Positions 10,139 through 45,992 are shown, counted from the first letter of the stretch. The stretch is DNA of 64,000 nt from Candidatus Levyibacteriota bacterium (GCA_050255815.1 JBLMVJ010000019.1:26-64025); one strand, 5' to 3'. Notes: a model not told the origin generated them from the sequence alone. Program-made: numbers and translations.

Positions 10139-11086
10139 TTAAACGTTATTGCGCCAATAATCAAGGGTATCTTTCAACGTTTGTTCTAATTTTATCTCCG
10201 GTTTCCATCCTAAAGTCTCAATTTTTGTATTATCAGACCTGATATCCGGAACATCAGAAGGCCGCAAAAGAGCAGGATCAATCTCTGTATCTATATGTTC
10301 AGTTGAAAGGGAAAGGAGTGAGTCAAGGATTTGGGAGATCTTATGTGACTTTCCGGATCCAGCATTATACACATCCCCTGATTGCCCCTTTTCTGCTATT
10401 GCTAAATATGCCTGCACCATATCCCGAACATCTGTAAAATCCCTTTTTGCCTCTAAATTCCCCACTTTCATAACCGGTGGGATTTTTTTCTTCTCAATTT
10501 CTGCTATTTGTTTTGCAAAAGAAGCCACAACAAACTGCGGAGTCTGCCGGGGCCCTATATGGTTAAACGGCCTCACCCTAATAACATCCATTTTATAAGA
10601 GTTAAAGTACTGCAACCCTAAATAATCCTGGGCAATTTTTGATACGGCATATGGGCTACCGGGTCGCATAGGAGTATTTTCATCCAATGGTAAATCTGAT
10701 GGCTCCACTAATCCATATATTTCAGCAGAGGAAGTAATAATAATCCTTGAGGAAATGTTTGCATTTCTTACTGCCTCAAGTAGGTTTATCTCTGCTGCTA
10801 TATTATTTGTGATTATTTTTTCCGGTTCTTTAAAGCTTTCTGCCGGTGAGGTAAGTGCAGCAAGATGGAAAATAATGTCCGGATTCAATTCAGCAATTAC
10901 TTTCTCTGTTTCTTCTCTGTCTAACAAATTAAGCTTTTTTAATACCAATCTATCTTTAATTGCGTCAACAAAAGAAAGGTTATCTGATATATGAGTTCCC
11001 TGAACAGTATAGTTTTTTTCAAGAAGAAGTTCAGCTAAAAAACTTCCGGCAAACCCTGAGATTCCTGTAACGAGGACTTTTTGCAT
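10139..11086 (-). CDS. rmd: GDP-4-dehydro-6-deoxy-D-mannose reductase (Rmd-like; GDP-D-rhamnose synthesis)
   Basis: [44 protein letters not shown] and GWKPEI parallel Pseudomonas Rmd motifs ([40 protein letters not shown]). Sits adjacent to gmd. Confidence 0.8.
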
Positions 11087-11089
11087 AAT

Positions 11090-12379
11090 TTACCTGCCTA
11101 CCCCAATTGATTTGAAGCCAATTTTTTCAAGTGTCTCCGGTTCATAAACGTTTCTGCCGTCAACCAGGTAGGGAGTTTTCATAGAGGCCGCAATTTTCTT
11201 CAGGTCTAATTCTTTAAATTCATTCCACTCAGTTAAAACCGCAAGCACGTCTACGCCTCTTGCTGCCTCATACGCATCTATTGTGTATATTACTTCCGGC
11301 ATGAGTTTTTTTGCATTCTCCATAGCCTGAGGATCATATGCTTTTATCTTTGCCCCTTCATTCCTAAGTAGATTAATAATAAAAGTAGAAGAGGCATCAC
11401 GCATATCATCAGTATTGGGCTTAAATGATAAGCCCAATACACCAATGGTTTTTCCACGCAAATCCCCTCCAAATAATTTTATTTTCTTCACAATATCCCG
11501 TCTGGCATATTCATTAATCCGCTCTACTTCATCTAATAATCCAAAATTGTAGTCATGGTCTTTTGCTATAGCCAGAAGTGCTTTTACATCCTTAGGGAAA
11601 CAGCTTCCGCCATACCCTGCACCTGCAGATAAAAATGCTGACCCAATCCGTTTATCTAATCCAATTCCCCTCAAAACATCAGGACCGTTTGCCCCGCATT
11701 TTTCCGAAAGTTTAGCGACGGCGTTTGCAAAGGAAATTTTGGTAGCAAGAAAAGAGTTAGAAGCGTATTTGATAAGCTCTGCGGTTTCTAAATTGGTTAA
11801 AACCAATTCTCCACCTAATGGCTTATGGAGTTCAACCAGTATATCCCGTGCTTTTTCAGATTCATATCCTATCACCACTCTGTCAGGATGCAGGGTGTCT
11901 GAAATTGCGCTCCCTTCCCTAAGAAACTCCGGAGTTGAAGTAAGGTCAAATTTTGCAGTTTCCGGTATATTTTCTGCAATAATCCGCTTAATTTTTTTAT
12001 TAGTTCCTGGCGGAACGGTACTTTTAGTTACTACTACTGTATAACCGGAAAGGTTTTGGGCAACTTTTTCTGCAACGCTAAAAACGGTTGCCAGCTCTGC
12101 ATCTCCGCTTTTCTGCGGAGGAGTCCCAACCGCAATAAAAACAACGTCTGATTCAGAAACTGCAGGAACATAATCTAAGGTTGGGATAAGTCTTCCCTCA
12201 TCAACATTTTTTTTGACTATTTCTTCAAGGCCCGGCTCCCAAATAGGACGTATTCCTTTTTTGAGGTTTTCAATTTTTTCAGGAGTATGGCCAATGATAT
12301 ATACAGTATTTCCTAAGTCAGCAAAAATCGCTGCGGTCACCAATCCTACATAACCATGTCCAATAAATGTAATGCGCAT
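11090..12379 (-). CDS. ugd: Nucleotide-sugar dehydrogenase (UDP-glucose 6-dehydrogenase family)
   Basis: N-terminal Rossmann IGHGYVGL. Catalytic GGSCFPKD motif. C-terminal UDP-binding domain. 429 aa. Confidence 0.8.
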   Translation of the reverse strand: MRITFIGHGYVGLVTAAIFADLGNTVYIIGHTPEKIENLKKGIRPIWEPGLEEIVKKNVDEGRLIPTLDYVPAVSESDVVFIAVGTPPQKSGDAELATVFSVAEKVAQNLSGYTVVVTKSTVPPGTNKKIKRIIAENIPETAKFDLTSTPEFLREGSAISDTLHPDRVVIGYESEKARDILVELHKPLGGELVLTNLETAELIKYASNSFLATKISFANAVAKLSEKCGANGPDVLRGIGLDKRIGSAFLSAGAGYGGSCFPKDVKALLAIAKDHDYNFGLLDEVERINEYARRDIVKKIKLFGGDLRGKTIGVLGLSFKPNTDDMRDASSTFIINLLRNEGAKIKAYDPQAMENAKKLMPEVIYTIDAYEAARGVDVLAVLTEWNEFKELDLKKIAASMKTPYLVDGRNVYEPETLEKIGFKSIGVGR

Positions 12380-12387
12380 ATAATCTT

Positions 12388-13266
12388 TTAACTTCCAAGT
12401 ACGTCTGACATCTCTTGCAACCCTTGGTCAAATGAACGGGGCGAAAATCCAAGATTTTTCATTTTATCATTTTTCAAATATAAATTGAAAGGGCGCTCCG
12501 CTTTTCCCGCAAAGTATTCCGCACGCACTACCTGTCCTATTACGGAAGTATCTACCCCCACCATCTGTGCAATTTTTTTGGCTGCAAGATATGGGGTGAG
12601 GGGAGTATCTCCTACCACATGGTATGTGCCCGTAAGATGCTCCACTATTACTTTGTGTATACCTCCCGCTATGTCATCTATATAGGTAGGAACAAAGATA
12701 TGGTCAGTTACACCTCTCACTTCTTGTCCGTTCTTTAAGCGTTGTGCAATAAGCCGCACAAAATCTTTTTTTTGCGCACTGCTTTTTCCATAAGGATATG
12801 CAATACGTAAAATGGCATGCATCACTCCGGAATTTCTTACCGCTTCTTCCCCCCGGTACTTTGTCTCTCCATACCAGTTAACCGGATTGGGTGTGTCTTC
12901 CTCAATGTATCCTTCCCCTTCCGACTTTTTTCCGTCAAAAACAAAATCAGTAGAAATATAAATGAGGGTTTTACGGTATTTTGAACAAAGGCGGGCAATT
13001 TCTTTAGTAGCAGAAACGTTAACCCGCCAGACCTCTCCATTTTCACCGTTTATCTTATCTTTTTCGCAACCGTCTACATCTGCATATGCTGCCATATGCA
13101 ACACGTACTCATCCGGAAACTCCACCATGTATTCCTCAACTGCTTTGTAATCAGTGATATCTACATTATTATGCCGGGATAATGATATGAAGCCCAGATC
13201 CGGAAGGATTTCCTTAATTCTGGTCCCTACCAAACCGGTCATTCCGGTTGCCAAAATACGGATCAT
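12388..13266 (-). CDS. rmlD: dTDP-4-dehydrorhamnose reductase
   Basis: ILATGMTGLVG Rossmann, STDFVFDG and YGETK motifs characteristic of RmlD/RfbD. Confidence 0.85.
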   Translation of the reverse strand: MIRILATGMTGLVGTRIKEILPDLGFISLSRHNNVDITDYKAVEEYMVEFPDEYVLHMAAYADVDGCEKDKINGENGEVWRVNVSATKEIARLCSKYRKTLIYISTDFVFDGKKSEGEGYIEEDTPNPVNWYGETKYRGEEAVRNSGVMHAILRIAYPYGKSSAQKKDFVRLIAQRLKNGQEVRGVTDHIFVPTYIDDIAGGIHKVIVEHLTGTYHVVGDTPLTPYLAAKKIAQMVGVDTSVIGQVVRAEYFAGKAERPFNLYLKNDKMKNLGFSPRSFDQGLQEMSDVLGS

Positions 13267-32810: not shown

Positions 32811-35279
32811 TTATCTCCCAATTGAGTCTTCTACTTCTTTAATCCGCACCGCGGTCTTGAGGACGGTGTCCGGATTGAGGGATATGGAGTCTATTCCCTC
32901 TTTTACTAAGAACTCTGCCAGCTCAGGGAAGTCTGATGGACCCTGTCCGCAAATTCCCACCTGCAGACCTTTCTCATGGGCTTTTTTAATGAGGGTGGAG
33001 ATTAACGTATGGACGGATTTATTCATTTCATTGCCAATATGCGCCACTAATTTAGAGTCACGGTCCAATCCTAATGTAAGCTGCGTCAAATCATTAGACC
33101 CTATGGAAAAACCGTCAAAAATATCCGCATATTCTTCTACCTGCAAAATGTTTGATGGGATTTCTGCCATCACCCACACATGGAGTCCCTCATCTAACTC
33201 TTCTTTGTGTTCTTTGTTGCGCTCATGATCATGGCTGAGTCCATGTTTTGCCATTTCTTCAATAACCTTTTTCCCTTCCTCCGGCGTCCTGCAGAATGGG
33301 ATCATAACCTGCAAGTTATGAAGTCCCATATCATTTCTTACTTTCATTACTGCCTTACATTCTAAAGCGAATGCGTCAGAAAACTGCGGATCAGTGTAGC
33401 GGCTTGCCCCGCGCCATCCTATCATAGGGTTTTCTTCATGCGGCTCAAATAGTTTCCCCCCAATAAGCCCGGCATATTCATTTGATTTAAAATCACTAAA
33501 TCTCAAGAGTACTTCGTGAGGATAAAATGCAGCGGCCATAATAGCAATACCATATGCTAACTTATCAATATAATAATCTACCCGGTTGTGGTACCCTGCG
33601 GTTAACTGGTCTATCTGCTTCTTAACTTCCTGGTCTTCTAAAGAGTCGTATTTTAATAGAGCATTCGGATGGATTTTAATAAAGTTAGAAATAATAAACT
33701 CTTCGCGGGCAAGACCAACTCCCATATTAGGTATAAAGGAATAGTTAAAAGCAAGCTCAGGGTCTGCCGCAATCATTTTTATTTTAGTCTTTGGCAGCTG
33801 GAACCCTGAAAGGTCTGTTTTATCTATCCTGAATGGTAAAATTCCTTCATAGACCACCCCGCGTTCACCCTCCGCGCAGGAAACTGTAATTTCCTGTCCG
33901 TTTGGTACTACCTTTGTTGCTTCACCGCAACCTACTATTGCAGGTATACCTAACTCCCGGGAGACAATAGCCGCATGGGAGGTACGTCCGCCTGAGTTGG
34001 TAACAATGGCTGAAGCTATCTTCATGATAGGCTCCCAGTCAGGGTCAGTAATTTCAGCAATCAATACTTCCCCTTTTTGGAATTCACTCAACTGGCTGGG
34101 GTCTTTAATAAACCGCGCTTTTCCCTGTCCAATTTTTCTTCCCACTGCCGCTCCGGTGATTAACTCTTTCCCTTTTTCCAAAAGCACACACTCTTCAAGG
34201 GACGTCCCGTCTTTTCTTGCCTGTACTGTTTCCGGCCTGGCCTGCACTATATACAACTCTTTTGTTTCTCCATCAAATGCCCATTCCATGTCCATAGGTT
34301 TCTGGTAGTGCTCTTCTATCATGAGACCCCAGCGGGAAAGCTGCAGGATATATTCATCTGAAAGAACAAAAGCCTGGCGGTCATTTGGGGGAACCGGAAC
34401 GTCTTTTGTAGGAGAGGTGCCCTCATTAGAATAAATAAGTTTCTTTTCTTTACTCCCTAATTTTTTACTGATAATAGCGTTGAAACCTTTTTTCAGGGTT
34501 GGCTTAAAAACCATAAACTCATCCGGGGTTACAATCCCTTTCACCACATATTCCCCTAATCCCCATGAACCATTTATCAGAACCACATCCCTGAATCCGC
34601 TTTCTGTATCCAGGGAAAACATCACCCCGGATGCGCCCCTATCAGAACGTGCCATTTTCTGGACTGCCACAGAAAGCGCTATCTTAAAGTGGTCAAATTT
34701 CTGGTCAACACGGTAGGAGATAGCGCGGTTAGTAAATAGGGAAGCAAACGCTTTTTTAATTGCATCCATCAGGGAGCGTTCTCCTTTAATATTTAAATAT
34801 GATTCCTGTTGGCCGGCAAAGGAAGCATCCGGCAAGTCTTCTGCGGTAGCAGAAGACCTCACCGCAACATCTAGGTCTTCTTTATTTATATTAAGCTTTT
34901 CTGCCATCTTTGCGTAAGCCTCTCCAACCGCTGCATTCATTTCATCCGGGAATATGGCAGACATGATCATTTCCCTGATCTTTTCGCCGGCTTGTTCTAA
35001 TTGTTTAATATCCTGGGTATTCAGACCATCTAGTACTTCTGAAATTTTCTTATCAAGCTGGTTCTTCTCAATAAAATATTTGTAAGAGTAAGAGGTTACC
35101 GCAAAACCGTAGGGTACTTTTATGCTTTCGTTTGGAAAAAGTTGGGATGATGCGTGGGTGAGGTTCTGGAACATTTCCCCCAGGTTTGCATTCTTTCCTC
35201 CTACCAGAGGTATATCATTCTTATTAATCTCATCAAACCATAATACAAATTGCTCTTCACGGGCAGCCATAATATCCAT
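32811..35279 (-). CDS. ppsA: Phosphoenolpyruvate synthase (PEP-utilising enzyme)
   Basis: N-terminal ATP-grasp start (FVLWFDEI..PLVGGKNANLGEM), phospho-His domain GGRTSHAAIVSRELGIPAIVG, C-terminal PEP-utilisers TIM barrel. 822 aa. Confidence 0.9.
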   Translation of the reverse strand: MDIMAAREEQFVLWFDEINKNDIPLVGGKNANLGEMFQNLTHASSQLFPNESIKVPYGFAVTSYSYKYFIEKNQLDKKISEVLDGLNTQDIKQLEQAGEKIREMIMSAIFPDEMNAAVGEAYAKMAEKLNINKEDLDVAVRSSATAEDLPDASFAGQQESYLNIKGERSLMDAIKKAFASLFTNRAISYRVDQKFDHFKIALSVAVQKMARSDRGASGVMFSLDTESGFRDVVLINGSWGLGEYVVKGIVTPDEFMVFKPTLKKGFNAIISKKLGSKEKKLIYSNEGTSPTKDVPVPPNDRQAFVLSDEYILQLSRWGLMIEEHYQKPMDMEWAFDGETKELYIVQARPETVQARKDGTSLEECVLLEKGKELITGAAVGRKIGQGKARFIKDPSQLSEFQKGEVLIAEITDPDWEPIMKIASAIVTNSGGRTSHAAIVSRELGIPAIVGCGEATKVVPNGQEITVSCAEGERGVVYEGILPFRIDKTDLSGFQLPKTKIKMIAADPELAFNYSFIPNMGVGLAREEFIISNFIKIHPNALLKYDSLEDQEVKKQIDQLTAGYHNRVDYYIDKLAYGIAIMAAAFYPHEVLLRFSDFKSNEYAGLIGGKLFEPHEENPMIGWRGASRYTDPQFSDAFALECKAVMKVRNDMGLHNLQVMIPFCRTPEEGKKVIEEMAKHGLSHDHERNKEHKEELDEGLHVWVMAEIPSNILQVEEYADIFDGFSIGSNDLTQLTLGLDRDSKLVAHIGNEMNKSVHTLISTLIKKAHEKGLQVGICGQGPSDFPELAEFLVKEGIDSISLNPDTVLKTAVRIKEVEDSIGR

Positions 35280-35359
35280 GCTACAGCATTTTAAGAATTT
35301 GGTAAAGAGGCATTCTTACAAAGTAGGAAAAGTGCGTAATTTTGGGTATAATATCTCCT

Positions 35360-36325
35360 ATGCCAAAAGTCAGGAAAAGGGTAGGCCGTCCAAAAAAAAT
35401 ACCAAGAAAGCAGAAATCTGTAGTTAAAATTTTTGAACATGATTTTTACAGGCATTTCATGTATACCCTATTCCTCCTTCTCATATCATCCCTTGCCACC
35501 TCTTTTGTCTGGGCGGCATTTACCCAAAAACCAAATCCCGTAACTTCTCTTTTTTTGAAAAATGACGTTAAAAAACCTTTGGCAAATGGGTATAAGTATG
35601 AAGAAAAAGGAAGTCCATTTGATATCCATATTAATGATAAAAATTCTCAAGTTATTTTTAACGGAGACCGTTCTAAAAAGCGGATCGCACTTACCTTTGA
35701 TGCTGAAATGACTGATTCTATGAAAGCAGCTGTTTTGAGCGGCAAGGTTTCTTATGACAAACGGATCATAGATATTTTAAATAGGACACAAACAAAAGCC
35801 ACTCTGTTTTTAACCGGCATGTGGATAGAGTTGTATCCAAAAGAGACTGAAGAATTTTCCAGCAATCCACTACTTGAGCTAGGAAGCCATTCATACACAG
35901 ACAGTTCTTATGACGGGTATTGTTTTGGCTTAACGCAACTCCATAATAGGGTAAAAATTGAAGAGATTGGGGCAACGGAAAAATTATTGCGGGAACATGG
36001 ACATATAGATAATTTTTTGTTCCGCTTTCCCGGCGGCTGCTATAAACCGGAAGACATAAAACTGGTAAACCAGGCAGGTGACATAGTGGTGCACTGGGAT
36101 GTAGCTGCTGAAGATGGGTTTAATGAAAATACGGACTCTATAGTAAAAAACGTGGTGTCAAAAACACAAAACGGGTCTATTATAGTTATGCACATGAACG
36201 GCGGGCCTACCGCACCCAAGACGGCAGACGCGCTGCCGGAAATTATTTCCCAACTCAGGCAAAAAGGGTTTGAATTTGTTAAAGTAAATGAGCTGTTGAA
36301 CTCAGCACCTGAACCCAGAGGATAA
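35360..36325 (+). CDS. Polysaccharide deacetylase (CE4 / NodB homology domain), membrane-anchored
   Basis: NodB motifs IALTFDA, GSHSYTD, FRFPGG, IVMHMNGG. First ATG at 35360 lies 7 nt after a TATAAT (leaderless-like). The track uses TTG 35342; alternative start MYTLF at 35459. Confidence 0.8.
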   Translation: MPKVRKRVGRPKKIPRKQKSVVKIFEHDFYRHFMYTLFLLLISSLATSFVWAAFTQKPNPVTSLFLKNDVKKPLANGYKYEEKGSPFDIHINDKNSQVIFNGDRSKKRIALTFDAEMTDSMKAAVLSGKVSYDKRIIDILNRTQTKATLFLTGMWIELYPKETEEFSSNPLLELGSHSYTDSSYDGYCFGLTQLHNRVKIEEIGATEKLLREHGHIDNFLFRFPGGCYKPEDIKLVNQAGDIVVHWDVAAEDGFNENTDSIVKNVVSKTQNGSIIVMHMNGGPTAPKTADALPEIISQLRQKGFEFVKVNELLNSAPEPRG

Positions 36326-36330
36326 TCTGG

Positions 36331-36870
36331 TTATAAAATCTGTTTGAGCAGGTCAAAATCATGTTCAAAAACAATCTTAAATTTTTTAAATCTAATAGCG
36401 GCAGAAGGGTGGTACATAATGAAATATTTCCCTTCCTCCAACTTCCCGTGTTCTTTTGACACCTGCACATCACGTCCTAAAACCGCCAAGCATGCCACCC
36501 TTCCCATAGGTACTATGATCCTGGGATTAATAATAGCAACCTGTTTTTTAAAATGGATGAGGCCATGTTCTATGTCTGAAGGTTTTGGGGTTTTATATTC
36601 CGGCAAATACTTTACCGGACTCGTAATGTAAACATCCTCTTCTTTCAATCCAATCCGGCGAATATTTTCCCGTAATAATTTGCCTGAGCGGCCAATAAAC
36701 GGTCTTCCGGTTGCAGATTCATTTCTTCCGGGTGCTTCCCCAACAAACAAAATATCTGCATCCGGATTCCCTTCCCCCGGAACCGCCTGGCCTACTTTCC
36801 CTCTTTTACACTCGTCACAATGTTCTATTTCAAACGCAATCTTATCCAATTCTCTTTGCTTGCTATCCAT
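36331..36870 (-). CDS. Uracil-DNA glycosylase, family 4
   Basis: GEGNPDADILFVGEAPGRNE and GRPFIGRSGKLL motifs. N-terminal Cys cluster (HCDECKRG) of Fe-S family-4 UDGs. Confidence 0.85.
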   Translation of the reverse strand: MDSKQRELDKIAFEIEHCDECKRGKVGQAVPGEGNPDADILFVGEAPGRNESATGRPFIGRSGKLLRENIRRIGLKEEDVYITSPVKYLPEYKTPKPSDIEHGLIHFKKQVAIINPRIIVPMGRVACLAVLGRDVQVSKEHGKLEEGKYFIMYHPSAAIRFKKFKIVFEHDFDLLKQIL

Positions 36871-36891: not shown

Positions 36892-39360
36892 CTACCGGAG
36901 TGTTGCACCCCCTACTATATCTGTTCCCCCTCTAATAACCACATCCTTTATTATAGTTGTCACTTTTGGATATGACCTATATGCATCAAGAGCTGACCCG
37001 TCACCATTAAAAATGGCTAGGCAAAAAGTTCTTGGATAAGAATCGTCCGTATTGTCAATTAATGAAAAATCAAATAACCCTGCATTATTATTTGCTAGTG
37101 TATTTTGGTGGTTGGTTATGTCTTCAGAATTATCACTTAACCATGTTTCAATATAGTCTTCTAAAATAGTTATATACCCGCTGTCGGAAGGGTCATTGCC
37201 TGATGATGAGATGAATGCATTATTTCCCCCGGATGAAGGATTAGGGTTATAAGCAATAGGTGTTCCATTGGCTATAGTGTCAACCGGACTATAAACTCCA
37301 TCGACACAATCTCCACTTACCGGCAACTCTGCATACTCTAACATCCAATCACCAGAATCAACCGCAAGTGTAGTACCTGAAGGACTATCCACATCTAAAA
37401 GCATTCTCAACCTGAAGGCTTTGCTTGGAGCATTTAACGTGGCAGGTGTATTTGCTGCAACATATGGATCAGAAGGATTGGGCCCATCAATATTTTCAAA
37501 AAACCGGTATCCTCCCTGGGACACAGATATTTGCGGGTTAAATGAAACAATCAGATTATCGCAGGTACCGCCTCCTGCATTATAAGTAACAGCGTCAGCT
37601 GTGGAAACCGGAGGATTATTGACAACTTCAGACCAGCTGCTATCAAATGTCCCACTGGATCCATTAAAACTTGAGGCTGAGTCGGTATAAGCCGAATGAG
37701 CTGTAACTGTCCGGGTTGAGGTTGCTGAAAATGCGGAGATAACCAGCACATCCGGATTGCTTGGTGTTAAGTTGGGGTTTGTGTTTTGATGAGCCCCGTT
37801 ATTACAAGTAGTAGATGCATTTAATCTGTTTCTTCTGTCTCTCACTGAACTGGTAGAATTACCGGAAAATTCCAAAGCCTGGACAGCAATAACCCCTGAT
37901 GAAGACGTAGAACAAGTAACGGTCGTTGACAATCCGGTGGGAGCAACTCTATAGTACATATAAATTCTTGGGCCTGAAGAATTATTGTAAGCAGAAGTCC
38001 ACCCGCTCTGGCTTGAAAATGAACTATTAGTAGTGCGGTAACAGATTTTGATAACTAAGTTATTTCTGGTAATTGGATTTGGCAATACGGCACTTACTGA
38101 CCTTCCGGAAGTAGTATTGTGCGCCTCCTGCACAAATTGGAAAATTGAGTCGGATGCAATTTTCCAAGCTTTTCCTTCACTGTAATTACCAATACGCAAT
38201 GGGCCTACTATATAAAATTCCGGGGATACCCTGGGAAAATGAATAGTATAGCGCAGAGTATATTTTTTTCCCTTTCGCCAGTCTACTTCCCATTGAACAG
38301 TTTTGTACTCATTCCCTTCAATCACTCTACCAAAGTTTCCTATATTAGAAATTGAAAAGCTTTCGGGCACGTAATCAGACACAATCCCTTTATAATCATT
38401 ACCCGGTATTATTACTGACTCTACCGGATAATCAACTGCAGGATAAATTCTTGTTGGAAAAAAACGCTCTATATTAAAGGCCGGATTCTCTTCTACGGTA
38501 AATGATGAATGAATACTCCTTTTCCCAAAAACGCTTTCTGCTTCCATGGTTAGTGTATATGTTCCTAATTCTTGTGCCTTAATCCCTGAATAAAAATCAG
38601 GCTTATTAGTGACTGAACGGTCTGCACATTCATTACTTCCCTTAATTGACCCATCCGTAGTCGACTGTTTTGTTATCTTCCCACTGGGACTCTCAATAGT
38701 CAGCCATATATGCGCTGTATTAAACTGGAGTTTTTCTCCGGCTATGCATTTTGTGTCCCCTAAGTCTCCCAAAACAACCATTCCAAGCTCAACTTGCTCT
38801 CCTTGCTTATAAACTGCCTTGTTTGTATTCACTGCTAGTACCCCCCAGGTAAAATCCTGGGATATAATTATGTCTTCATCATTAACTGACCTAACTTTTA
38901 CATGCAGGCTATACATACCGGGCTGGATACTATTCTGTGAAGGAGGTGAAAGCAAAAGAAGTTTGGACTGTAAATTCATTTTTTTATCTAAATCAATTTT
39001 TATATCCGCTTTAGTATTTTCAATATAAGCCTCAACGGATCCCTGCCTTTTTTCCTGGCTTAAGCTCCAAAAAGAAGAATATTTAGTACCTGAAAGGTTA
39101 ACCTCAAACTGGGGACGTGAAGTCAGTTTTATATCAAAGGCTTCAATTTTTCCTTGATCTGGATTTATTTTAATTACCTGTTTTGATTGGGGGATATAAG
39201 CTTTTGGTTTTGTTGTTTCCTTATGAAAGGAAAGGGTATAAAAAAAAACGAAAAAACAGGAAAAAATTATAGTAACTATTAAAATTGAAATCAGGTTTAC
39301 CTTATGCCTGCCTAAAAACTTTCCCACAAGCACATAATATTCCCTATGGTGGTGAGTCAA
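36892..39360 (-). CDS. Large membrane-anchored extracellular protein (822 aa), Ser/Thr/Asn-rich
   Basis: N-terminal TM anchor then long beta-rich low-complexity extracellular region. No catalytic motif recognised. Confidence 0.6.
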   Translation of the reverse strand: MTHHHREYYVLVGKFLGRHKVNLISILIVTIIFSCFFVFFYTLSFHKETTKPKAYIPQSKQVIKINPDQGKIEAFDIKLTSRPQFEVNLSGTKYSSFWSLSQEKRQGSVEAYIENTKADIKIDLDKKMNLQSKLLLLSPPSQNSIQPGMYSLHVKVRSVNDEDIIISQDFTWGVLAVNTNKAVYKQGEQVELGMVVLGDLGDTKCIAGEKLQFNTAHIWLTIESPSGKITKQSTTDGSIKGSNECADRSVTNKPDFYSGIKAQELGTYTLTMEAESVFGKRSIHSSFTVEENPAFNIERFFPTRIYPAVDYPVESVIIPGNDYKGIVSDYVPESFSISNIGNFGRVIEGNEYKTVQWEVDWRKGKKYTLRYTIHFPRVSPEFYIVGPLRIGNYSEGKAWKIASDSIFQFVQEAHNTTSGRSVSAVLPNPITRNNLVIKICYRTTNSSFSSQSGWTSAYNNSSGPRIYMYYRVAPTGLSTTVTCSTSSSGVIAVQALEFSGNSTSSVRDRRNRLNASTTCNNGAHQNTNPNLTPSNPDVLVISAFSATSTRTVTAHSAYTDSASSFNGSSGTFDSSWSEVVNNPPVSTADAVTYNAGGGTCDNLIVSFNPQISVSQGGYRFFENIDGPNPSDPYVAANTPATLNAPSKAFRLRMLLDVDSPSGTTLAVDSGDWMLEYAELPVSGDCVDGVYSPVDTIANGTPIAYNPNPSSGGNNAFISSSGNDPSDSGYITILEDYIETWLSDNSEDITNHQNTLANNNAGLFDFSLIDNTDDSYPRTFCLAIFNGDGSALDAYRSYPKVTTIIKDVVIRGGTDIVGGATLR

Positions 39361-39376
39361 TCTGTATAAAGTTGGC

Positions 39377-40666
39377 TCAATTTGACCGGATGAGGTGAGT
39401 AAGAACAGGGTTTATCTGATACGTTTTGTTTTGGACTACTATTAGTTTTTTTCCGAGTTTTGCATATACTTTTCTGTTAATTTTCACCATAGCGTCATAT
39501 ACCTGTCTCCAGTTTTTCCCCTGGTCATTATCCCCAAAAATATCTAATAGCTCATCAGTTTCAAAACGTCTTGCCGGTTTTTTAATAAGAGTTGTAAGTA
39601 AATAATACTGGTTGGTAGCATAAGGAATTTTTATTTCCGTCTCTGCCAGATTTAATATTCCCGTCTTGCCGGAAAAAGAAATATTGCTGGGCATAGTAAC
39701 TAATTTAGTATTTCTTTTTAGTTGAGATCCATATATCAAAAATGTAGCAACAACTAGCAAGCTAATTCCTAAAACGCTTTGCAATTTTATATATTCTAAA
39801 ACAAGGGAAAATATAGGGGAAAGATTTTCTCCAATTATTAAAATGCCTATAGGTGTATTATTTTTCTTAAGCACCTCTGTCTTTAATGCATACCATTCAC
39901 CGGTTGCTTTATCCCTCATGATCCTATCCTTGGCAGCACTAAATTCACGTTTCACATAACTGGGGTCAATAAAACTGGAAATCCTTCTCAGATTTGTTAC
40001 ATTAGTACTTTTTTTGAGGATAGCATTGTATTTATCAACTACAAGAAAGGCAACATCTGTGGGTAATTTCCGCTCATCTATCTTACTAACTTCTATAATT
40101 GAATTCTTCACCGTAATTTTTGAAAAAATTTTCTCCTTTGTCTCCCTTAATTTTGTGTCAATCTCATCAAGAATTTGCATAGGAGGATTTGTATAAGAAA
40201 CTGCAATCACCCCTATTGTCTTCCCATTATCCCTGATAGGCTCAGAATATATCCTTCTCTCTTGGTTTGTAATAGTATTGATTGTTTGTGGTTTTGTATA
40301 ATTTAGTAATAATTTAAAATCGGCGGTGTCAAGAAAGCCATGAATTGGACTTCTTCTGTCTATCACGAAACCTTCAGTAGAAATAAAGTACAGGGGAAAA
40401 CTTGCTAATAATGTAGGGTCTGAATTATAAAGAGAAAGATTCCATTTGCTATTATTAGTAAACACCGCATCTTTTTTTATCTGTGCTACCTTTACTGACA
40501 GCCGGTTTTTAATTACTCCGTATTCTATGCCGGCAATAATTACCATACTTAACAGTAGTTCTAAACAGAAAAGGAAAAGAGGGATTCTCAGGTATGCCAT
40601 GAATGCCTTTGAGGAAAAAGGTGATTCCATAATGCATGGCAGATTATAGTAGAAATAACTCAACAA
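39377..40666 (-). CDS. Membrane-anchored OmpR/PhoB-type winged-helix transcriptional regulator with extracytoplasmic sensor domain
   Basis: TM1 (~aa 25-50), ~250-aa extracytoplasmic domain, TM2, then C-terminal ILNLAETEIKI..YYLLTTLIKKPARRFETDELLDIFGD..WRQVYDAMVKINRKVYAKLGKKLIVVQNKTYQIN matching the Trans_reg_C pattern. No receiver or kinase domain. Confidence 0.6.
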   Translation of the reverse strand: MLSYFYYNLPCIMESPFSSKAFMAYLRIPLFLFCLELLLSMVIIAGIEYGVIKNRLSVKVAQIKKDAVFTNNSKWNLSLYNSDPTLLASFPLYFISTEGFVIDRRSPIHGFLDTADFKLLLNYTKPQTINTITNQERRIYSEPIRDNGKTIGVIAVSYTNPPMQILDEIDTKLRETKEKIFSKITVKNSIIEVSKIDERKLPTDVAFLVVDKYNAILKKSTNVTNLRRISSFIDPSYVKREFSAAKDRIMRDKATGEWYALKTEVLKKNNTPIGILIIGENLSPIFSLVLEYIKLQSVLGISLLVVATFLIYGSQLKRNTKLVTMPSNISFSGKTGILNLAETEIKIPYATNQYYLLTTLIKKPARRFETDELLDIFGDNDQGKNWRQVYDAMVKINRKVYAKLGKKLIVVQNKTYQINPVLTHLIRSN

Positions 40667-40803
40667 TGGAAGGCTGCACCTTATTTGGTACTTTTGATTC
40701 TGTTTCCAAAGTAATGGCCATAGGGGGATTATAGTACAAATTAAGCTTTGGGGAAATTATTGAGATATTACAGTTACTGCAGATAAAGCTGCCTTTAATG
40801 AAT

Positions 40804-42567
40804 TTAGGGCGAAAAGATTGCGCCCCACTCAACCGCGGTAAATCCTGATCTTTTAACTGGATTTTCTTTTCTGGGAAAAGGAACTTGAATAAGACTTTTC
40901 AAAGGTTTGAAATAAAGTTCTACCCGCAAAAGAACATCCGGTTTTGGCGTGATAGTTAACGGGTATATTTCAGAGATAGTTTGTTGGGTTAAATTTGACA
41001 CAAAGTAATAGGGAGATTCTGGCAGCTTTGTTTTCCAGAAGGAAATAAATTCATTTGCTTCTGACTCTGTTAGCCCCAGCTCTTTCACATAGTCTTTTGA
41101 AAAAGTAAACAAGCTCCTAAATGGTATTACGTAGCCACCATCCGGCTGAGGCACAGAAAGTAAAGCTTCATAATATAAATAATCTAAAGAATTATTAATT
41201 CTTCCATTTGGTGAAGCGGCTACTTCCCAACCATAGGCTTTTGAATTATAGAGGCTGTCTGTTTTTATCAAGCTCCCTTGCGGATGGATTTCAACCTGTA
41301 CCCGTTCTGTTTTTGGGGGATATAAATAAATAGCAGGTTTACCTCCATAAACTGTAGGCATAGTAGCATAGTAGCCAACTGCAGAATATTTTTGCCACGT
41401 GCCATTTTGCTTTATATAAACTTCATTTCGAGTTGTTTTTAACAAGTTAACGTTCCATTTGTCTTTTGACCAAAGGGCAGTAGGATTAGAAGCTTTCCCG
41501 TATACGTCAACTGCAAAAGGCTGGATGTCTGTATTATCTCCCCGGACGTAATAGGGCTGGGTCATTCCCGGACCATCTTCCTGAGTGTTAACACAATTCA
41601 TATGCCACATAGCAGTAGTATTTTTTTCAAATCCTCCCCATGAGTCCTTTGTTCCTATAATAGGTGTTACCGTCTTAGAAAAAGTTGAAGAATCAGAAAA
41701 AGCCTCTCCAGACTTCACATAATTCACCATAAATCCTCTATTTGTATCAGGGGAACTGGCTACTGGCTGCAACTTGGCGGCAACGTTTGGGGTGTACGGC
41801 CAATAACTTTCTACCGGATCCTTTCCGTCTGAATCGTGGTATGTAGAAAGAGTAAAATTATCCGGGAATGTTTTTAACGGAACCAGGGCAGGGGCTGTAC
41901 ACGTAGAAACCACCTCAAGGGGCCTCACACTATCCGCCATTTTTTGTGCAATCTCTTCTGCATTTGTAAGAAAGTATCCATGGGTTTGGAAGGCTTGAGT
42001 ATCTACCTTTACCTGGTATTTCAAGCCATATACCTTAAACTCCTTAACAATATCTCCAGGTTTAGTATACGTAGGATCAGTGTCTCCCACGCTTATCATT
42101 CCATCCATAAAGGGTTTATTTTTATCATAACTTTTATCTAATACATTAAAGTTTATGCAGTTCCAAAATCCTCCGCCTGAAGGACATTCTGAAGCAGTCC
42201 AGGTATCCGGATAATCAATCTCATATCCACCATATGAAAATTGGTACGTTTTCCAGGTGGTTATAGGGGGAAGCGGCATTTTATCAGGTAGAGGCACGGT
42301 AGGAGCTGGCATGCTGGGAATCATACTGGGAAAGATGCTGGGAAACGGTGGCAAAGACGGCATTGAGTTTTGGGTAAGTGTTTTTTTCTGGGGGACCTTA
42401 TCAAGTGAGAAAAGAAGATAAACGCAAAGTCCCAAAGCCAGGAAAAGAAAAACAAGTAAGACTATAGCAAATTTCTTTTTGGGTTTTTTAGGTGGGATAA
42501 CTGGAGCAGTAGGTTCTTGGATTTCAGGAACAACCGGAAGAGGAAGTTTAGTTTCTTCTTTGGGCAT
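40804..42567 (-). CDS. Membrane-anchored Pro-rich extracellular protein (587 aa)
   Basis: Pro-rich N-terminus, one TM, large extracellular domain. No family recognised. Confidence 0.55.
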   Translation of the reverse strand: MPKEETKLPLPVVPEIQEPTAPVIPPKKPKKKFAIVLLVFLFLALGLCVYLLFSLDKVPQKKTLTQNSMPSLPPFPSIFPSMIPSMPAPTVPLPDKMPLPPITTWKTYQFSYGGYEIDYPDTWTASECPSGGGFWNCINFNVLDKSYDKNKPFMDGMISVGDTDPTYTKPGDIVKEFKVYGLKYQVKVDTQAFQTHGYFLTNAEEIAQKMADSVRPLEVVSTCTAPALVPLKTFPDNFTLSTYHDSDGKDPVESYWPYTPNVAAKLQPVASSPDTNRGFMVNYVKSGEAFSDSSTFSKTVTPIIGTKDSWGGFEKNTTAMWHMNCVNTQEDGPGMTQPYYVRGDNTDIQPFAVDVYGKASNPTALWSKDKWNVNLLKTTRNEVYIKQNGTWQKYSAVGYYATMPTVYGGKPAIYLYPPKTERVQVEIHPQGSLIKTDSLYNSKAYGWEVAASPNGRINNSLDYLYYEALLSVPQPDGGYVIPFRSLFTFSKDYVKELGLTESEANEFISFWKTKLPESPYYFVSNLTQQTISEIYPLTITPKPDVLLRVELYFKPLKSLIQVPFPRKENPVKRSGFTAVEWGAIFSP

Positions 42568-42642: not shown

Positions 42643-43107
42643 ATGAAGTATGCGGCAGGATTACTTCTAGCATTACCATTCCTTTTCTTTTCCTCTCCAG
42701 CATGTGCTGCTACCAGTACTGTTTCTGTCCACACAGAAGGGGATTCAAACGTTTCAGTTCATAGTGATGTAAAAAGCAGTAGCACCAATAAAACAGTGGT
42801 TACCCAAAATGGGAGCACCAGTGTTCACATAGAGCAGACGGGAAATGGTACCTCTAAAGTAGATGTAAATGGAAGACAGTGGGAGCTGAATGGCCCCGGG
42901 AAAATTGATGAGGAGACAGGAACTCCAAATCCCAGTTCTGACAATACACCTACCATCACTATTCCTGCTGTATCTATTACACCGTTCCCAAACCATACGG
43001 CAACTATCTCACCAATCCTAACCGTCCAGGAAAAACCTCGTACTAGCTTTATCCAACAAGCAATAGCAACCTTCCTCAAACGCCTCTTTACATTTCTGGG
43101 AATTTAA
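42643..43107 (+). CDS. Small secreted Ser/Thr-rich protein with signal peptide
   Basis: Signal peptide MKYAAGLLLALPFLFFSSPACA, then repetitive T/S/V-rich sequence. Confidence 0.5.
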   Translation: MKYAAGLLLALPFLFFSSPACAATSTVSVHTEGDSNVSVHSDVKSSSTNKTVVTQNGSTSVHIEQTGNGTSKVDVNGRQWELNGPGKIDEETGTPNPSSDNTPTITIPAVSITPFPNHTATISPILTVQEKPRTSFIQQAIATFLKRLFTFLGI

Positions 43108-43238: not shown

Positions 43239-45992
43239 TTATCCTAATTCCGGATAATGACACTTCTTCCACTTTTTACCGCTTCCACACCAGCATGGGT
43301 CATTACGACCCAGCTTTTCCTTTTTCACGCTGTCATCCATGGAATCATTCGAGCTTCCTGTATCCCCAGTGAGATACCCACCTGCTACCTGCGACGTGCT
43401 ACCTGCTTGCTCACTTACCTCTGTCTCCGGCGCATTGGTTGCAATATCTCTTCTTCCTTCCAGCTCCTCCAGCGGTTCTTGCTGTGGCATAGCTTGTATA
43501 TTTATTTTATACACTCTATGGGTTATCCCATCATCTATGGCTGCAAGCAAACGTTCAAACATACTGAACGCTTCACTTTTATACTCAACCAGTGGGTCGC
43601 GCTGACCATAACCTCTTAATCCTATACCGGTCCGCAAATCTTCCATAGCAGTCAGATGCTCCATCCAAAAATTATCTATTGAAGATAACGTTACCAGCTT
43701 TAAAATGTTTTCTATATTTTCTTTCCCAAATTGTTTTTGGCGCGCATTCTCAATCTGCTGAGTAATGCCATCCAAAAATTCCTCAACCTCTTCTATGGTC
43801 TTCATCTGCTTAATTTGGTTTACCAGGTGTGATTTAGAATGCTCGTCAAAATTTAGAACGGTAGTAAATTCATCAATTATATTCTCTGAGGGGTTGTCAG
43901 GGTCTGAAAAATGCATGGCAACAATTTCAGAAATCTCCGCCCGGACCTTTTCCAGGACAAATTCTGTTAAGTTCTCTGAACCGTCTACTATACTACGCCT
44001 TAATTTATAAACTATTTCCCTTTGTTTATTTAAAACATCATCATAGTCCAGTAAATTCTTCCGGCTTTCAAAGTTAAACCCTTCCACTTTTACCTGGGCT
44101 TGCGAGATGACACGGGTTACCAGGGGGTGAGTAAGCGGCATATCTTCAGGGAAATTAAAACGGGTCATAAGACCTGCTATCTGTTCCCCTCCAAATACCC
44201 GCATAAGGTCATCCTCAAGTGAAAGTATAAATACTGATCTTCCCGGATCTCCCTGGCGTCCGGACCGTCCACGCAACTGGTTGTCTATACGTCTGGATTC
44301 ATGCTTTTCCGTTCCTATCACCAGTAAACCACCGGCTGCCTTTACACTTTCGTGCTCTTTTTTCCATGCATCATACTCTTTCTTAAACCTGGCCTGACCC
44401 TCTTTCCCCTGGTATTCCAACTCAAAAGAAGACGGCGGCTGGCCACCTAAAATAATATCCACCCCGCGGCCTGCCATGTTAGTTGCTACCGTCACTGCTT
44501 TTAACCGGCCTGCATCTTTAATAATAAGCGCTTCCCGCATATGGTTCTTTGCATTTAACACCTGGTGGGGAATTTTCTTGCGCTTCAGATACTCTGAAAT
44601 AATTTCATTCTTATCTATAGAGGTGGTACCTACTAAAACGGGTTGGCCTTTTTCATACGCTTCTTCAATTTCTTTCACTACTGCCGCTACTTTTGCCCGG
44701 GTAGTTTTATAGATTAAATCAGGATGGTCTTTCCGTTCTGTTGGCCTATGGGTAGGGATCACTACTACGTCAAGCTTGTAAATTTTATGGAACTCTTCTG
44801 CTTCTGTAACCGCAGTTCCGGTCATACCACCTAACCTGGTATAAAGCCTGAAATAATTTTGCAGTGAAACAGTAGCCAACGTTTTAGATTCTTGCTGTAT
44901 CTGTACACCCTCTTTTGCCTCTATTGCCTGGTGTAACCCTTCTGATAATCTTCTCCCCTCCAAAAGGCGACCGGTAAACTCATCTACCAGAATTACTTGT
45001 CCATCCCTGACAATATAGTCCTTATTGTTGTGGAATAAAGTCTGCGCCTTCAGTGCTGCCTCTATGTGATACACCGTATCAAAATCTTTTTCATAAATAT
45101 CCTTTACCCCGTATAATTTTTCAATTTTAGAAATACCATGCTCCGTTAAGTGGACTGTCCGCAATTTCTCATCAATTTTATAGTCTGTATCGGCAGATAT
45201 CTTGTCTACAATCTTTGCGTAATCATAATATTTCTGGGAGGGGGTCTCATCCGGCATGGAGATAATATGGGGAGTCCTGGCCTCATCTATAAGGACTGAG
45301 TCTACCTCATCTATCACTGCAAAATAATGTTCTTTCTGGACAGTCTGGGCAATATCCTGGACCATATTATCCCGTAGATAATCAAATCCAAATTCTGAGT
45401 TAATACCATATAGGATATCTTTCTCATATGCTTCTTTCCGGGAAATAGATTTTAAATGGATAAGACGGTAATCTTTTGCTTCTGTGTCTACATATTCAGG
45501 ATCATAGGCAAATGATTGTTCTGAAATAATAGTGGCAACGGTCATTCCCAGGAAACTAAATACGGCACCCATCCATCCGGCGTCCCTGCGAGCCAAATAA
45601 TCATTTACGGTTACTAAATGCACCCCTTTTCCGGTTAATGCATGCAGATACAGAGCGGGAACGGCAGAAAGAGTTTTTCCTTCCCCTGTCTTCTGCTCAG
45701 CAACTTTTCCCTGTGCCAGCACCGTAGCAGCAATTAGTTGGACATCATAGTGACGCTGGCCTATGGTACGCATAGCAGCCTCCCGTACCAGGGCAAATGC
45801 TTCCGGTAAAATAGAATAGAGGGCTTCCCCTTTTTCCAGCCGTTTTTTTAACTCCTCCGTCTTTTTTGGAAAATCTGAATCTTTTAGCTTTTTAAGCTTT
45901 GATTCAAACTTATTTATTTCCTCAACAATAGGACGGATTTTTTTAACCTCACGGTCATTTGAATCAAATATTTTTGTAAGTGTCCCTAACAT
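43239..45992 (-). CDS. secA: Preprotein translocase ATPase SecA
   Basis: 917 aa. DEAD-like motor motifs, preprotein cross-linking domain, C-terminal zinc finger CWCGSGKKWKKCH. No SD upstream of the ATG. Confidence 0.95.
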   Translation of the reverse strand: MLGTLTKIFDSNDREVKKIRPIVEEINKFESKLKKLKDSDFPKKTEELKKRLEKGEALYSILPEAFALVREAAMRTIGQRHYDVQLIAATVLAQGKVAEQKTGEGKTLSAVPALYLHALTGKGVHLVTVNDYLARRDAGWMGAVFSFLGMTVATIISEQSFAYDPEYVDTEAKDYRLIHLKSISRKEAYEKDILYGINSEFGFDYLRDNMVQDIAQTVQKEHYFAVIDEVDSVLIDEARTPHIISMPDETPSQKYYDYAKIVDKISADTDYKIDEKLRTVHLTEHGISKIEKLYGVKDIYEKDFDTVYHIEAALKAQTLFHNNKDYIVRDGQVILVDEFTGRLLEGRRLSEGLHQAIEAKEGVQIQQESKTLATVSLQNYFRLYTRLGGMTGTAVTEAEEFHKIYKLDVVVIPTHRPTERKDHPDLIYKTTRAKVAAVVKEIEEAYEKGQPVLVGTTSIDKNEIISEYLKRKKIPHQVLNAKNHMREALIIKDAGRLKAVTVATNMAGRGVDIILGGQPPSSFELEYQGKEGQARFKKEYDAWKKEHESVKAAGGLLVIGTEKHESRRIDNQLRGRSGRQGDPGRSVFILSLEDDLMRVFGGEQIAGLMTRFNFPEDMPLTHPLVTRVISQAQVKVEGFNFESRKNLLDYDDVLNKQREIVYKLRRSIVDGSENLTEFVLEKVRAEISEIVAMHFSDPDNPSENIIDEFTTVLNFDEHSKSHLVNQIKQMKTIEEVEEFLDGITQQIENARQKQFGKENIENILKLVTLSSIDNFWMEHLTAMEDLRTGIGLRGYGQRDPLVEYKSEAFSMFERLLAAIDDGITHRVYKINIQAMPQQEPLEELEGRRDIATNAPETEVSEQAGSTSQVAGGYLTGDTGSSNDSMDDSVKKEKLGRNDPCWCGSGKKWKKCHYPELG

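Follow-up and report, generated by a model that had tools for sequence, protein, structure and literature searches.

Organization of the locus

This work concerns a putative membrane-bound transcription regulator and the promoter region that directly follows its gene. Both are located in a 64,000-nt stretch of DNA (hereafter the window; JBLMVJ010000019.1:26-64025 of assembly GCA_050255815.1) belonging to a metagenome-assembled genome (MAG) of Candidatus Levyibacteriota from the Candidate Phyla Radiation (CPR/Patescibacteria). All four open reading frames (ORFs) that the initial annotation had listed for this locus were found in the window at their coordinates. The minus strand, to which all coordinates below refer unless otherwise indicated, carries in the direction of reading a 587-aa ORF (40804–42567), the regulator gene (39377–40630, or to 40666 with an alternative start), a large ORF (36892–39360) and then a gene of the UDG (uracil-DNA glycosylase) family. 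The encoded proteins are 100% identical to NCBI entries ACM3IJ_03100, ACM3IJ_03105 and ACM3IJ_03110, all of which are registered as “hypothetical”. Considering all the data presented below, we find it probable that the second of these genes encodes a transmembrane one-component regulator with predicted operator boxes and a target promoter immediately downstream.

Two start codons had to be moved. For the regulator the likely start is ATG at 40630, rather than TTG at 40666, which gives a product of 417 aa plus the stop codon and coincides with the NCBI call (ACM3IJ_03105, 417 aa). In the large ORF, initially listed as an 822-aa protein, TTG at 39360 falls within the predicted operator box TTGACTCAC, and the true start is GTG at 39327, the same as in the NCBI record, so that the product has 811 aa. 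At 811 and 587 aa the two flanking proteins do not deserve the epithet “giant” that they had been given.

Architecture of the regulator

Two transmembrane (TM) helices were revealed by hydropathy in the 417-aa protein. TM1 occupies residues 16–34 (40529–40585, Kyte-Doolittle mean 2.42), while TM2 spans residues ~281–299 (39734–39790, mean 2.08) and is followed by the K/R-rich segment QLKRNTK with three basic residues in the C-terminal flank. An AlphaFold2 (AF2) model built on the alignment of 19 homologs (29–46% identity) had a mean predicted local distance difference test (pLDDT) score of 86.3 and placed TM1 inside a long helix 7–54 and TM2 inside helix 271–306. Between them lie two alpha/beta modules (residues 55–147 and 173–269) linked by helix 151–171, while the C-terminal half continues after TM2 with three short strands (317–334), helices 340–350, 358–364 and 374–392 and a beta-hairpin (397–406).

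The segment enclosed by the membrane helices (residues ~55–270, 39821–40468) is most similar to double Cache/PDC-like sensors. It has their layout, in that it is flanked by two TM helices, follows a long stalk helix on the N-terminal side and is made up of two PDC alpha/beta modules, and in the Foldseek search against PDB the N-terminal part of the protein matched a WalK model and the double-Cache domains of PctA, Tlp3, Mlp24 and DctB. In a one-by-one Pfam scan of the homologs Cache_WalK was found in 9 of 19 proteins (best E=3.6e-6), dCache_1 in three and ArlS_N in two.

The C-terminal part (residues ~312–410, 39401–39697, with recognition helix WRQVYDAMVKINRKV) is folded as a winged helix-turn-helix (wHTH) domain of OmpR/PhoB type. 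An N-terminal beta-sheet, three helices including the recognition helix and a C-terminal beta-hairpin wing are all present in the model, and Foldseek matched this part with probability 1.00 to CovR (3rjp; target-normalised TM-score 0.79, root-mean-square deviation 2.1 Å), AdeR (5x5l; 0.79) and PhoB (1gxq; 0.73), as well as to CadC (5ju7; 0.69), ToxR (8b4d; 0.66), OmpR and GlnR, so that target-normalised scores were overall in the range 0.66–0.79. In ~140 family members the recognition helix retains its basic residues.

At the level of sequence the domain is much less visible. The Trans_reg_C profile (PF00486), whose failure to match the initial annotation had named as a refutation, gave no match to the window protein alone at E≤1, i.e. 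the curated threshold was not reached, and the NCBIfam search with the single sequence returned a faint CreB match in region 150–202 (E=0.087). Sub-threshold matches to Trans_reg_C were found in 4 of 19 homologs (best E=0.007). A phmmer search of the C-terminal domain against PDB produced spurious epsin matches only, and the full-length family profile found nothing useful there. A 65-sequence profile of the domain (A2) recognized AdeR 5x5l with E=9.7e-4 (profile positions 10–105, chain positions 5–102), followed by ArlR (0.028–0.058) and CovR (0.34); these values are marginal, yet all five best matches were OmpR-family DNA-binding domains. Taken literally, the outcome for the single sequence thus refutes the wHTH, while the 65-sequence profile and the fold spoke for it. 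Since sub-threshold matches of homologs, profile matches and an unambiguous fold match point in the same direction, the miss by Pfam can, judging by profiles and the model, be taken for a failure of sensitivity rather than for true absence of the domain.

Only ~10–12 residues separate TM2 from the wHTH in the AF2 model, which leaves no room for a receiver or kinase, and no receiver, HisKA/kinase, HATPase_c or HAMP domain was found in the regulator by Pfam, NCBIfam or in the model. Hydropathy, AF2, Foldseek and the domain profile therefore bear out what had been proposed from the sequence: the N-terminus is inside, TM1 is followed by an extracytoplasmic domain (~215 aa) and TM2 by a cytoplasmic OmpR/PhoB-type wHTH, and the sensor is fused directly to the DNA-binding domain in an order reverse to that of ToxR and CadC. 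As far as it can be judged from the model, this topology is real. Having a DNA-binding domain and TM helices in one protein and no core two-component domains, the regulator falls under the definition of transmembrane transcription regulators (TTRs; PMC10269533).

Predicted operator boxes downstream of the regulator gene

Two box-like sites lie at the junction of the regulator gene with the next one. The TGA of the distal weak box ATTGAGCCAACT (39370–39381, 8.9 bits by position weight matrix, PWM) is the stop codon of the regulator. Located 20 nt downstream of it, the proximal strong box ATTGACTCACCA (39350–39361, PWM 13.8 bits), with the core TGACTCAC at 39352–39359, overlaps the −35 region of a promoter whose −10-like hexamer TATTAT (39334–39339) is found exactly 20 nt past the T in the TGA core of this box; six nucleotides separate the hexamer from GTG 39327. 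This is the sole phased pair of boxes in 64 kb, where composition-matched shuffles give on average 0.03 pairs. ACTGAGTG, an altered counterpart of the core TGACTCAC, is proposed as a core mutant.

Near-matches to TTGAYTCAC with at most one mismatch are not abundant in the window (18 observed against 29 expected). A second exact copy of TTGACTCAC is present at 10318–10326 of the minus strand inside an epimerase/dehydratase-like ORF (10139–11086); given its coding location and the lack of a phased partner, it is probably a chance match. Generic scans of the region for sigma-70 promoters and terminators gave scores at or below the shuffle expectation and were uninformative.

The boxes were then compared in 43 loci. 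The first set included 30 non-redundant loci (the window, contigs with homologs and GTDB genomes), and the independent set consisted of 13 additional metagenome loci, to which the PWM derived from the first set was applied. In the first set exact TGANTCA occurs 34 times within 80 nt after the stop codon (0.014 per nt) as compared with 0.00028 per nt in the other ~260 kb, which makes an approximately 50-fold enrichment; at least one such site was found in this interval in 21 of 30 loci and at least two in 10 of 30. The refined motif, (T/G)TGAnTCAC(A), forms tandem direct repeats. All 21 spacings between adjacent sites correspond to one or two turns of the helix, being 10–11 nt in 13 cases and 20–22 nt in eight, and in 18 of 24 loci a TAnnnT hexamer is situated exactly 20 nt past the T with which the last TGA core begins, while each of the other offsets from 8 to 44 is represented by 0–3 loci. 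The independent set reproduced the same features with 21.5-fold enrichment, phased pairs in 6 of 13 loci and the −10 at offset 19–20. Operators of two or three boxes that are stronger than that of the window were observed in L026, L017 and L051. Among 33 loci with a site, 15 have an ORF of at least 40 aa whose start codon is located 4–10 nt past the −10, and such a distance implies the geometry of a leaderless mRNA. Consistent boxes upstream of the regulator genes, as might be expected for autoregulation, were not found.

This divergent wHTH is also found at the C-terminus of proteins that differ in their N-terminal parts, such as other two-TM sensors (P0146, P0150). Soluble proteins of ~400 aa without TM helices and with an unrelated N-terminal region were observed as well (P0147, P0153, P0157, P0159, P0160, P0164), the loci of such soluble proteins including L033 (4001–4400) and L054 (1501–1900). 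In L033, L054 and L055 three phased boxes (TGAsTCA) are found right after the stop codon of the soluble protein.

Another kind of correspondence concerns the recognition helix. Where it reads DAM(T/I)S(I/V)N, in place of DAM(V/I/L)x(I/L)N, the regulators are paired with variant repeats TTCAC, TCCAC, TACAC or TGGATnCA (n=8; loci L001, L005, L008, L009, L013, L014, L021 and L037). Judging by the alignment with AdeR made here and by the PhoB–DNA complex, the positions that vary in the helix are presumably those contacting bases. By inspection, the covariation of sequences in helix and box appears suggestive. Because boxes accompany soluble proteins with this wHTH and because helix and box covary, they seem to follow the DNA-binding domain rather than the sensor or the general structure of promoters.

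Regulators with DAM(T/I)S(I/V)NKKV have 3–4 tandem 10-bp repeats of the types TGTACACATT, CATCCACATT, TTATTCACG and TTCAC, located at 10822–10880 in L005, 5191–5245 in L009, 3828–3885 in L008 and after the stop codon in L037. In L005 and L009 the variant repeats are followed by one canonical TTGACTCA at a fixed distance from the −10. It is possible that variant repeats reflect a switch in specificity or that two kinds of sites are combined in one operator.

The putative downstream target

The gene behind the boxes (36892–39327) encodes an 811-aa protein with an N-terminal TM anchor (39238–39294) and a string of macroglobulin (MG)/Ig-like beta-sandwiches. Its AF2 model (pLDDT 84.3) contains one helix (6–33) and thereafter strands only. 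Pfam matches in the family are MG2 (10 of 36 proteins, best 1.4e-10), WxLIP_HBD (8 of 36) and InlK_D3 (5 of 36), while Foldseek aligned the model with strings of MG domains in complement C5, A2M, TEP1 and CD109 at E ~1e-10, with global TM-scores of only ~0.1. Thioester (TED), bait-region and receptor-binding domains were not found by Pfam, and the model has no helical TED-like region. MG-type sandwiches are common to this protein and to alpha-2-macroglobulins and other thioester proteins, but the latter have ~1,200–1,800 aa against 811 aa here. Judging by the model, the protein is not an alpha-2-macroglobulin but a stalk of beta-sandwich domains anchored in the membrane.

Orthologs with 57–58% identity directly follow the regulator and its boxes in L010, L011, L029 and L056, i.e. 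in five loci including the window. Large downstream proteins of L001, L005, L006, L007 and L008 are not homologous to the 811-aa protein, and homologs of it were found in this position in the closest relatives only. A paralogous subfamily with ~45% identity is often encoded directly downstream of the ortholog; in the genome from which the window comes its member resides on another contig (ACM3IJ_02400, P0190). Ortholog and paralog are arranged in tandem in L034 (1328–6291) and L057 (5001–9962), and near the ortholog in L057 there is a gene running off the locus (11251–12442), whose recorded product, of 20,465 residues, is truly giant.

More distant loci have unrelated genes in the same position, such as that for a 2,347-aa protein with CLIPPER/DUF11 repeats (L001) or for anchored proteins of 460–880 aa, and in about 10 loci the target is a single-TM protein of 45–120 aa. 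Common to most targets is a hydrophobic anchor or a signal sequence at the N-terminus. In L026 and L028 the ORF nearest to the boxes encodes a Cys/His-rich protein of ~94–111 aa (FRRAxGxCEC...H.H...C) without a membrane anchor, and this ORF is preceded by the Shine-Dalgarno-like GGAGGTGA instead of the leaderless arrangement.

Proposed mode of action and alternatives

Based on these data one can assume the following sequence of events. The outward Cache/PDC-like domain presumably binds a small-molecule cue, which would shift the arrangement of TM2 and, through the linker of ~12 residues, rearrange the wHTHs tethered to the membrane. Several tethered copies might then bind head-to-tail, side by side on one face of DNA, at the phased (T/G)TGAnTCAC boxes, the first of which coincides with the stop codon of the regulator itself or lies directly behind it. 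The last box, overlapping the −35 region at a fixed distance of 20 nt from the −10 of the next gene, may serve, 12 nt upstream of the −10, in place of a regular −35 element. In the window such a promoter (boxes 39381–39350, −10 39339–39334) would drive synthesis of a probably leaderless mRNA starting from GTG 39327 and encoding the 811-aa surface protein.

PhoB pho boxes replace the −35 element. ToxR, whose wHTH is tethered to the membrane, uses multiple sites and recruits RNA polymerase (PMC10629549, PMC12802830), and ToxR, TcpP and CadC are mostly activators (PMC12802830, PMC5430869). By analogy with pho boxes and ToxR/TcpP, activation through recruitment of RNA polymerase seems to be more likely than repression.

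Several observations weigh against this reading as a whole. In the window itself there are only one strong box (13.8 bits) and one weak (8.9 bits), and in the first set exact TGANTCA is missing within 80 nt after the stop codon from nine of the 30 loci; seven of these nine possess other direct repeats (five are devoid of any box-like site), while L030 and L031 have neither a PWM site nor clear repeats. The core TGAnTCA and its extended form GTGAnTCAC are palindromic, which is unusual against the asymmetric half-sites of the OmpR family. Phased boxes (10–11 or 20–22 nt) adjoin the regulator gene in both sets; their association with the protein is positional and comparative by nature. Regulator and boxes are both missing in two loci that do have the 811-aa target, namely L034, where the first gene did not prove to be a regulator in a check with hidden Markov models, and L057. 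On the sensor side, Foldseek probabilities were only 0.13–0.75 for the domains of PctA, Tlp3, Mlp24 and DctB, with 0.93 for the integrative model of WalK, and the match of the window protein to sCache_3_3 (E=0.0027, 18.4 bits) is below the Pfam cut-off of 28.8. Finally, the proximal box overlaps the −35 region and starts with TTGAC, which could serve as a −35-like element; the regulator would then be a repressor.

Repression would require the same protein and the same boxes, but the regulator would occupy the −35-like TTGAC and occlude RNA polymerase until the Cache cue appears. We consider it unlikely, while leaving it appreciable weight. Besides the sequence of the proximal box, read-through from the regulator into the target is possible, as a scan found no terminator between the two genes. 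However, TTGACT taken as a −35 element would leave a spacer of just 15 nt to the −10, and many loci have a proximal GTGAnTCAC without TTGAC. The geometry, moreover, resembles that of PhoB pho boxes, and characterised membrane-bound wHTH regulators are mostly activators.

Regulated proteolysis, in which a stimulus frees the wHTH from the membrane as a soluble factor, as proposed for cleavage of CadC, has a precedent among transmembrane regulators (PMC11484849), and soluble proteins with the same type of wHTH do exist. It is nevertheless rather improbable here, with a linker of only ~12 residues and no hint of a protease in the sequence or the neighbourhood. Such a scenario is compatible with action of the regulator at the boxes and does not exclude it.

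According to the initial annotation, the regulator, both large flanking proteins and a 154-aa secreted protein constitute a self-contained module for surface sensing or adhesion. All four products do have an N-terminal anchor or signal-like segment, and three of the genes are co-oriented. The 811-aa gene is indeed linked to the regulator by the conserved operator/promoter and by synteny, but the other two are just neighbours, and comparison of gene neighbourhoods makes the four-gene version very unlikely and largely refuted. A part in attachment to a host or in episymbiosis, which the initial annotation also suggested, is speculative, and in other genomes the cassette precedes unrelated targets, among them the single-TM proteins of 45–120 aa. 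The upstream 587-aa protein (40804–42567), composed of a TM anchor, a proline-rich linker and a domain without family assignment, has no Pfam or NCBIfam match; none of its 15 homologs adjoins a regulator, and they reside in unrelated contexts, beside NusA/IF-2 or glycosyltransferase genes. The 154-aa protein with a signal-peptide-like N-terminus is encoded divergently (42643–43107, plus strand) and has neither a Pfam/NCBIfam match nor a homolog in related loci. No homolog of either protein was found at any other regulator locus examined, and between the 587-aa gene and the regulator there is a gap of 137–173 nt that contains TATAAT elements of its own.

The least probable version, namely that the wHTH-shaped fold no longer binds DNA (serving, for instance, as a protein-interaction module) and that the boxes are read by another factor or a CPR-specific sigma, can refer to the missing Pfam match of the window protein and to the OmpR-family signature altered in the recognition helix (RKVYDAM..INKK versus RTVDVHI..LRKK in the profile alignment to AdeR), but it hardly agrees with the conserved basic residues of this helix, with co-occurrence of boxes and domain whatever the N-terminal part, and with the deficit of near-matches and the coding location of the other exact match, which show that the boxes are no general feature of promoters.

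Comparison with known systems

By its domain composition the regulator resembles ToxR, CadC and TcpP: an extracytoplasmic sensor and an OmpR/PhoB-type wHTH are combined in one polypeptide without a phosphorelay, the wHTH is tethered near the membrane, multiple sites (predicted here) are located beside or overlap the −35, and ToxR (8b4d) and CadC (5ju7) are among the fold matches. Unlike them, it has the sensor first and the wHTH last, two TM helices instead of one, a Cache-like rather than ToxR_C/CadC periplasmic domain, and an operator that directly follows its own stop codon. A partner of the ToxS/TcpH/VtrC type was not observed either, since except for the variable downstream target no second gene is conserved in the 43 loci. 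The ToxR family is defined by a wHTH at the N-terminus, a single TM helix and a periplasmic domain at the C-terminus, in this order. As the order is different here, the protein is not a strict member of the family, though it probably works like one.

With the PhoB/OmpR-family regulators of class-II promoters it shares the wHTH fold and, as predicted here, head-to-tail sites with a 10–11-nt period, the last of which lies at a constant distance from the −10 and overlaps the −35 or takes its place. In contrast to them, it has no receiver and no phosphorylation, control would have to be exerted via the membrane helix, and the core of the box is the palindromic TGAnTCA. WalK, PctA, Tlp3 and DctB, to which the best Pfam and Foldseek similarity was found, have a similar sensor built of PDC-type alpha/beta modules between two TM helices, but they continue with HAMP and a kinase or methyl-accepting module, whereas the output here is a DNA-binding domain fused to TM2.

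The census of Demey et al. (2023) comprises 50,302 TTRs, of which 17% have two TM helices, Trans_reg_C being present in 3,459 and dCache_1 in 936 (PMC10269533). Among its examples are combinations of dCache_1 with HTH_18 (AraC) and of sCache_3_3 with HTH_DeoR (PMC10269533), in which the extracytoplasmic Cache sensor is also N-terminal and the cytoplasmic DNA-binding domain C-terminal; they differ in the type of the latter (AraC/DeoR instead of OmpR/PhoB) and in size (~740–770 aa against 417). Since membrane-bound one-component regulators are well established and the census has such examples, the sensor-first topology is not new in kind. What appears to be new is the union of a Cache-like sensor and a C-terminal OmpR-type wHTH in compact 417 aa, as well as the restriction to CPR (as far as seen), invisibility to curated models and the predicted cassette of operator and leaderless promoter. 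A census based on Pfam/MiST would miss the regulator because neither of its domains passes the Pfam thresholds. A literature search found no published description of this regulator family or of its boxes.

Genomic surroundings and spread of the family

In the 173-nt gap upstream of the regulator (40631–40803) there are two near-identical elements, tttgTACTATAATcc with TATAAT at 40733–40728 and tttcTACTATAATct with TATAAT at 40648–40643, located 85 nt apart; 12 nt separate the end of the second from ATG 40630. Both may be considered candidate promoters of the regulator. No TGAnTCAC boxes were found in this gap, and no paralogs of the regulator in the 64-kb window. The surroundings (32811–36870 and 43239–45992) are ordinary housekeeping genes, encoding a PEP (phosphoenolpyruvate) synthase-like protein (822 aa), a polysaccharide deacetylase (PF01522, E=2e-17) and SecA; the UDG-superfamily glycosylase (PF03167, E=1.5e-31) begins merely 21 nt 3′ of the target gene.

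With clusters formed at 50% identity, an exhaustive profile search returned 730 representatives at E≤1e-3, of which 131 reached E≤1e-30, and most profile-matched members have 400–440 aa and the same end-to-end architecture. In species-representative genomes 25 loci were registered under the labels Levyibacteriota, Microgenomates, Roizmanbacteria, Paceibacterota and “Patescibacteria group”, some of them in small-genome MAGs with placeholder labels. Within the searches made here the regulator family was seen only in CPR/Patescibacteria assemblies. The soluble proteins that end in the same wHTH and are followed by three phased boxes point to a broader group of one-component regulators in CPR with a common DNA-binding module and operator layout.

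Implications

The divergent wHTH is combined with Cache sensors, other two-TM sensors and soluble domains. We tentatively propose, at somewhat less than even confidence, that it forms a portable CPR-specific cassette, in which the 3′ end of the sensor–wHTH gene, with its stop codon, carries the operator and a leaderless −10, while the pair of wHTH and box is reused with at least three unrelated inputs. If so, any gene landing downstream would come under the control of the regulator.

A large part of bacterial diversity belongs to the CPR/Patescibacteria, most of which have never been cultured, and almost nothing is known of their gene regulation. The locus described here offers a concrete triplet of regulator, operator and target, i.e. 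a protein domain, a box of 9 bp in a fixed position within the promoter, and a target gene, which can be tested in vitro or in another host without culturing the organism. Domain censuses based on Pfam miss this family entirely, and membrane one-component signalling in reduced genomes may therefore be under-counted. Minimal transmembrane signalling into DNA binding, with a Cache domain, a TM helix, ~12 residues and a wHTH, also makes the protein attractive for structural work and engineering of biosensors. If the proposed scheme is true, then in organisms with very few classical two-component systems the cassette could be a main route from the surface to transcription, and the control that it exerts over surface and envelope proteins would be relevant to their attached lifestyle.

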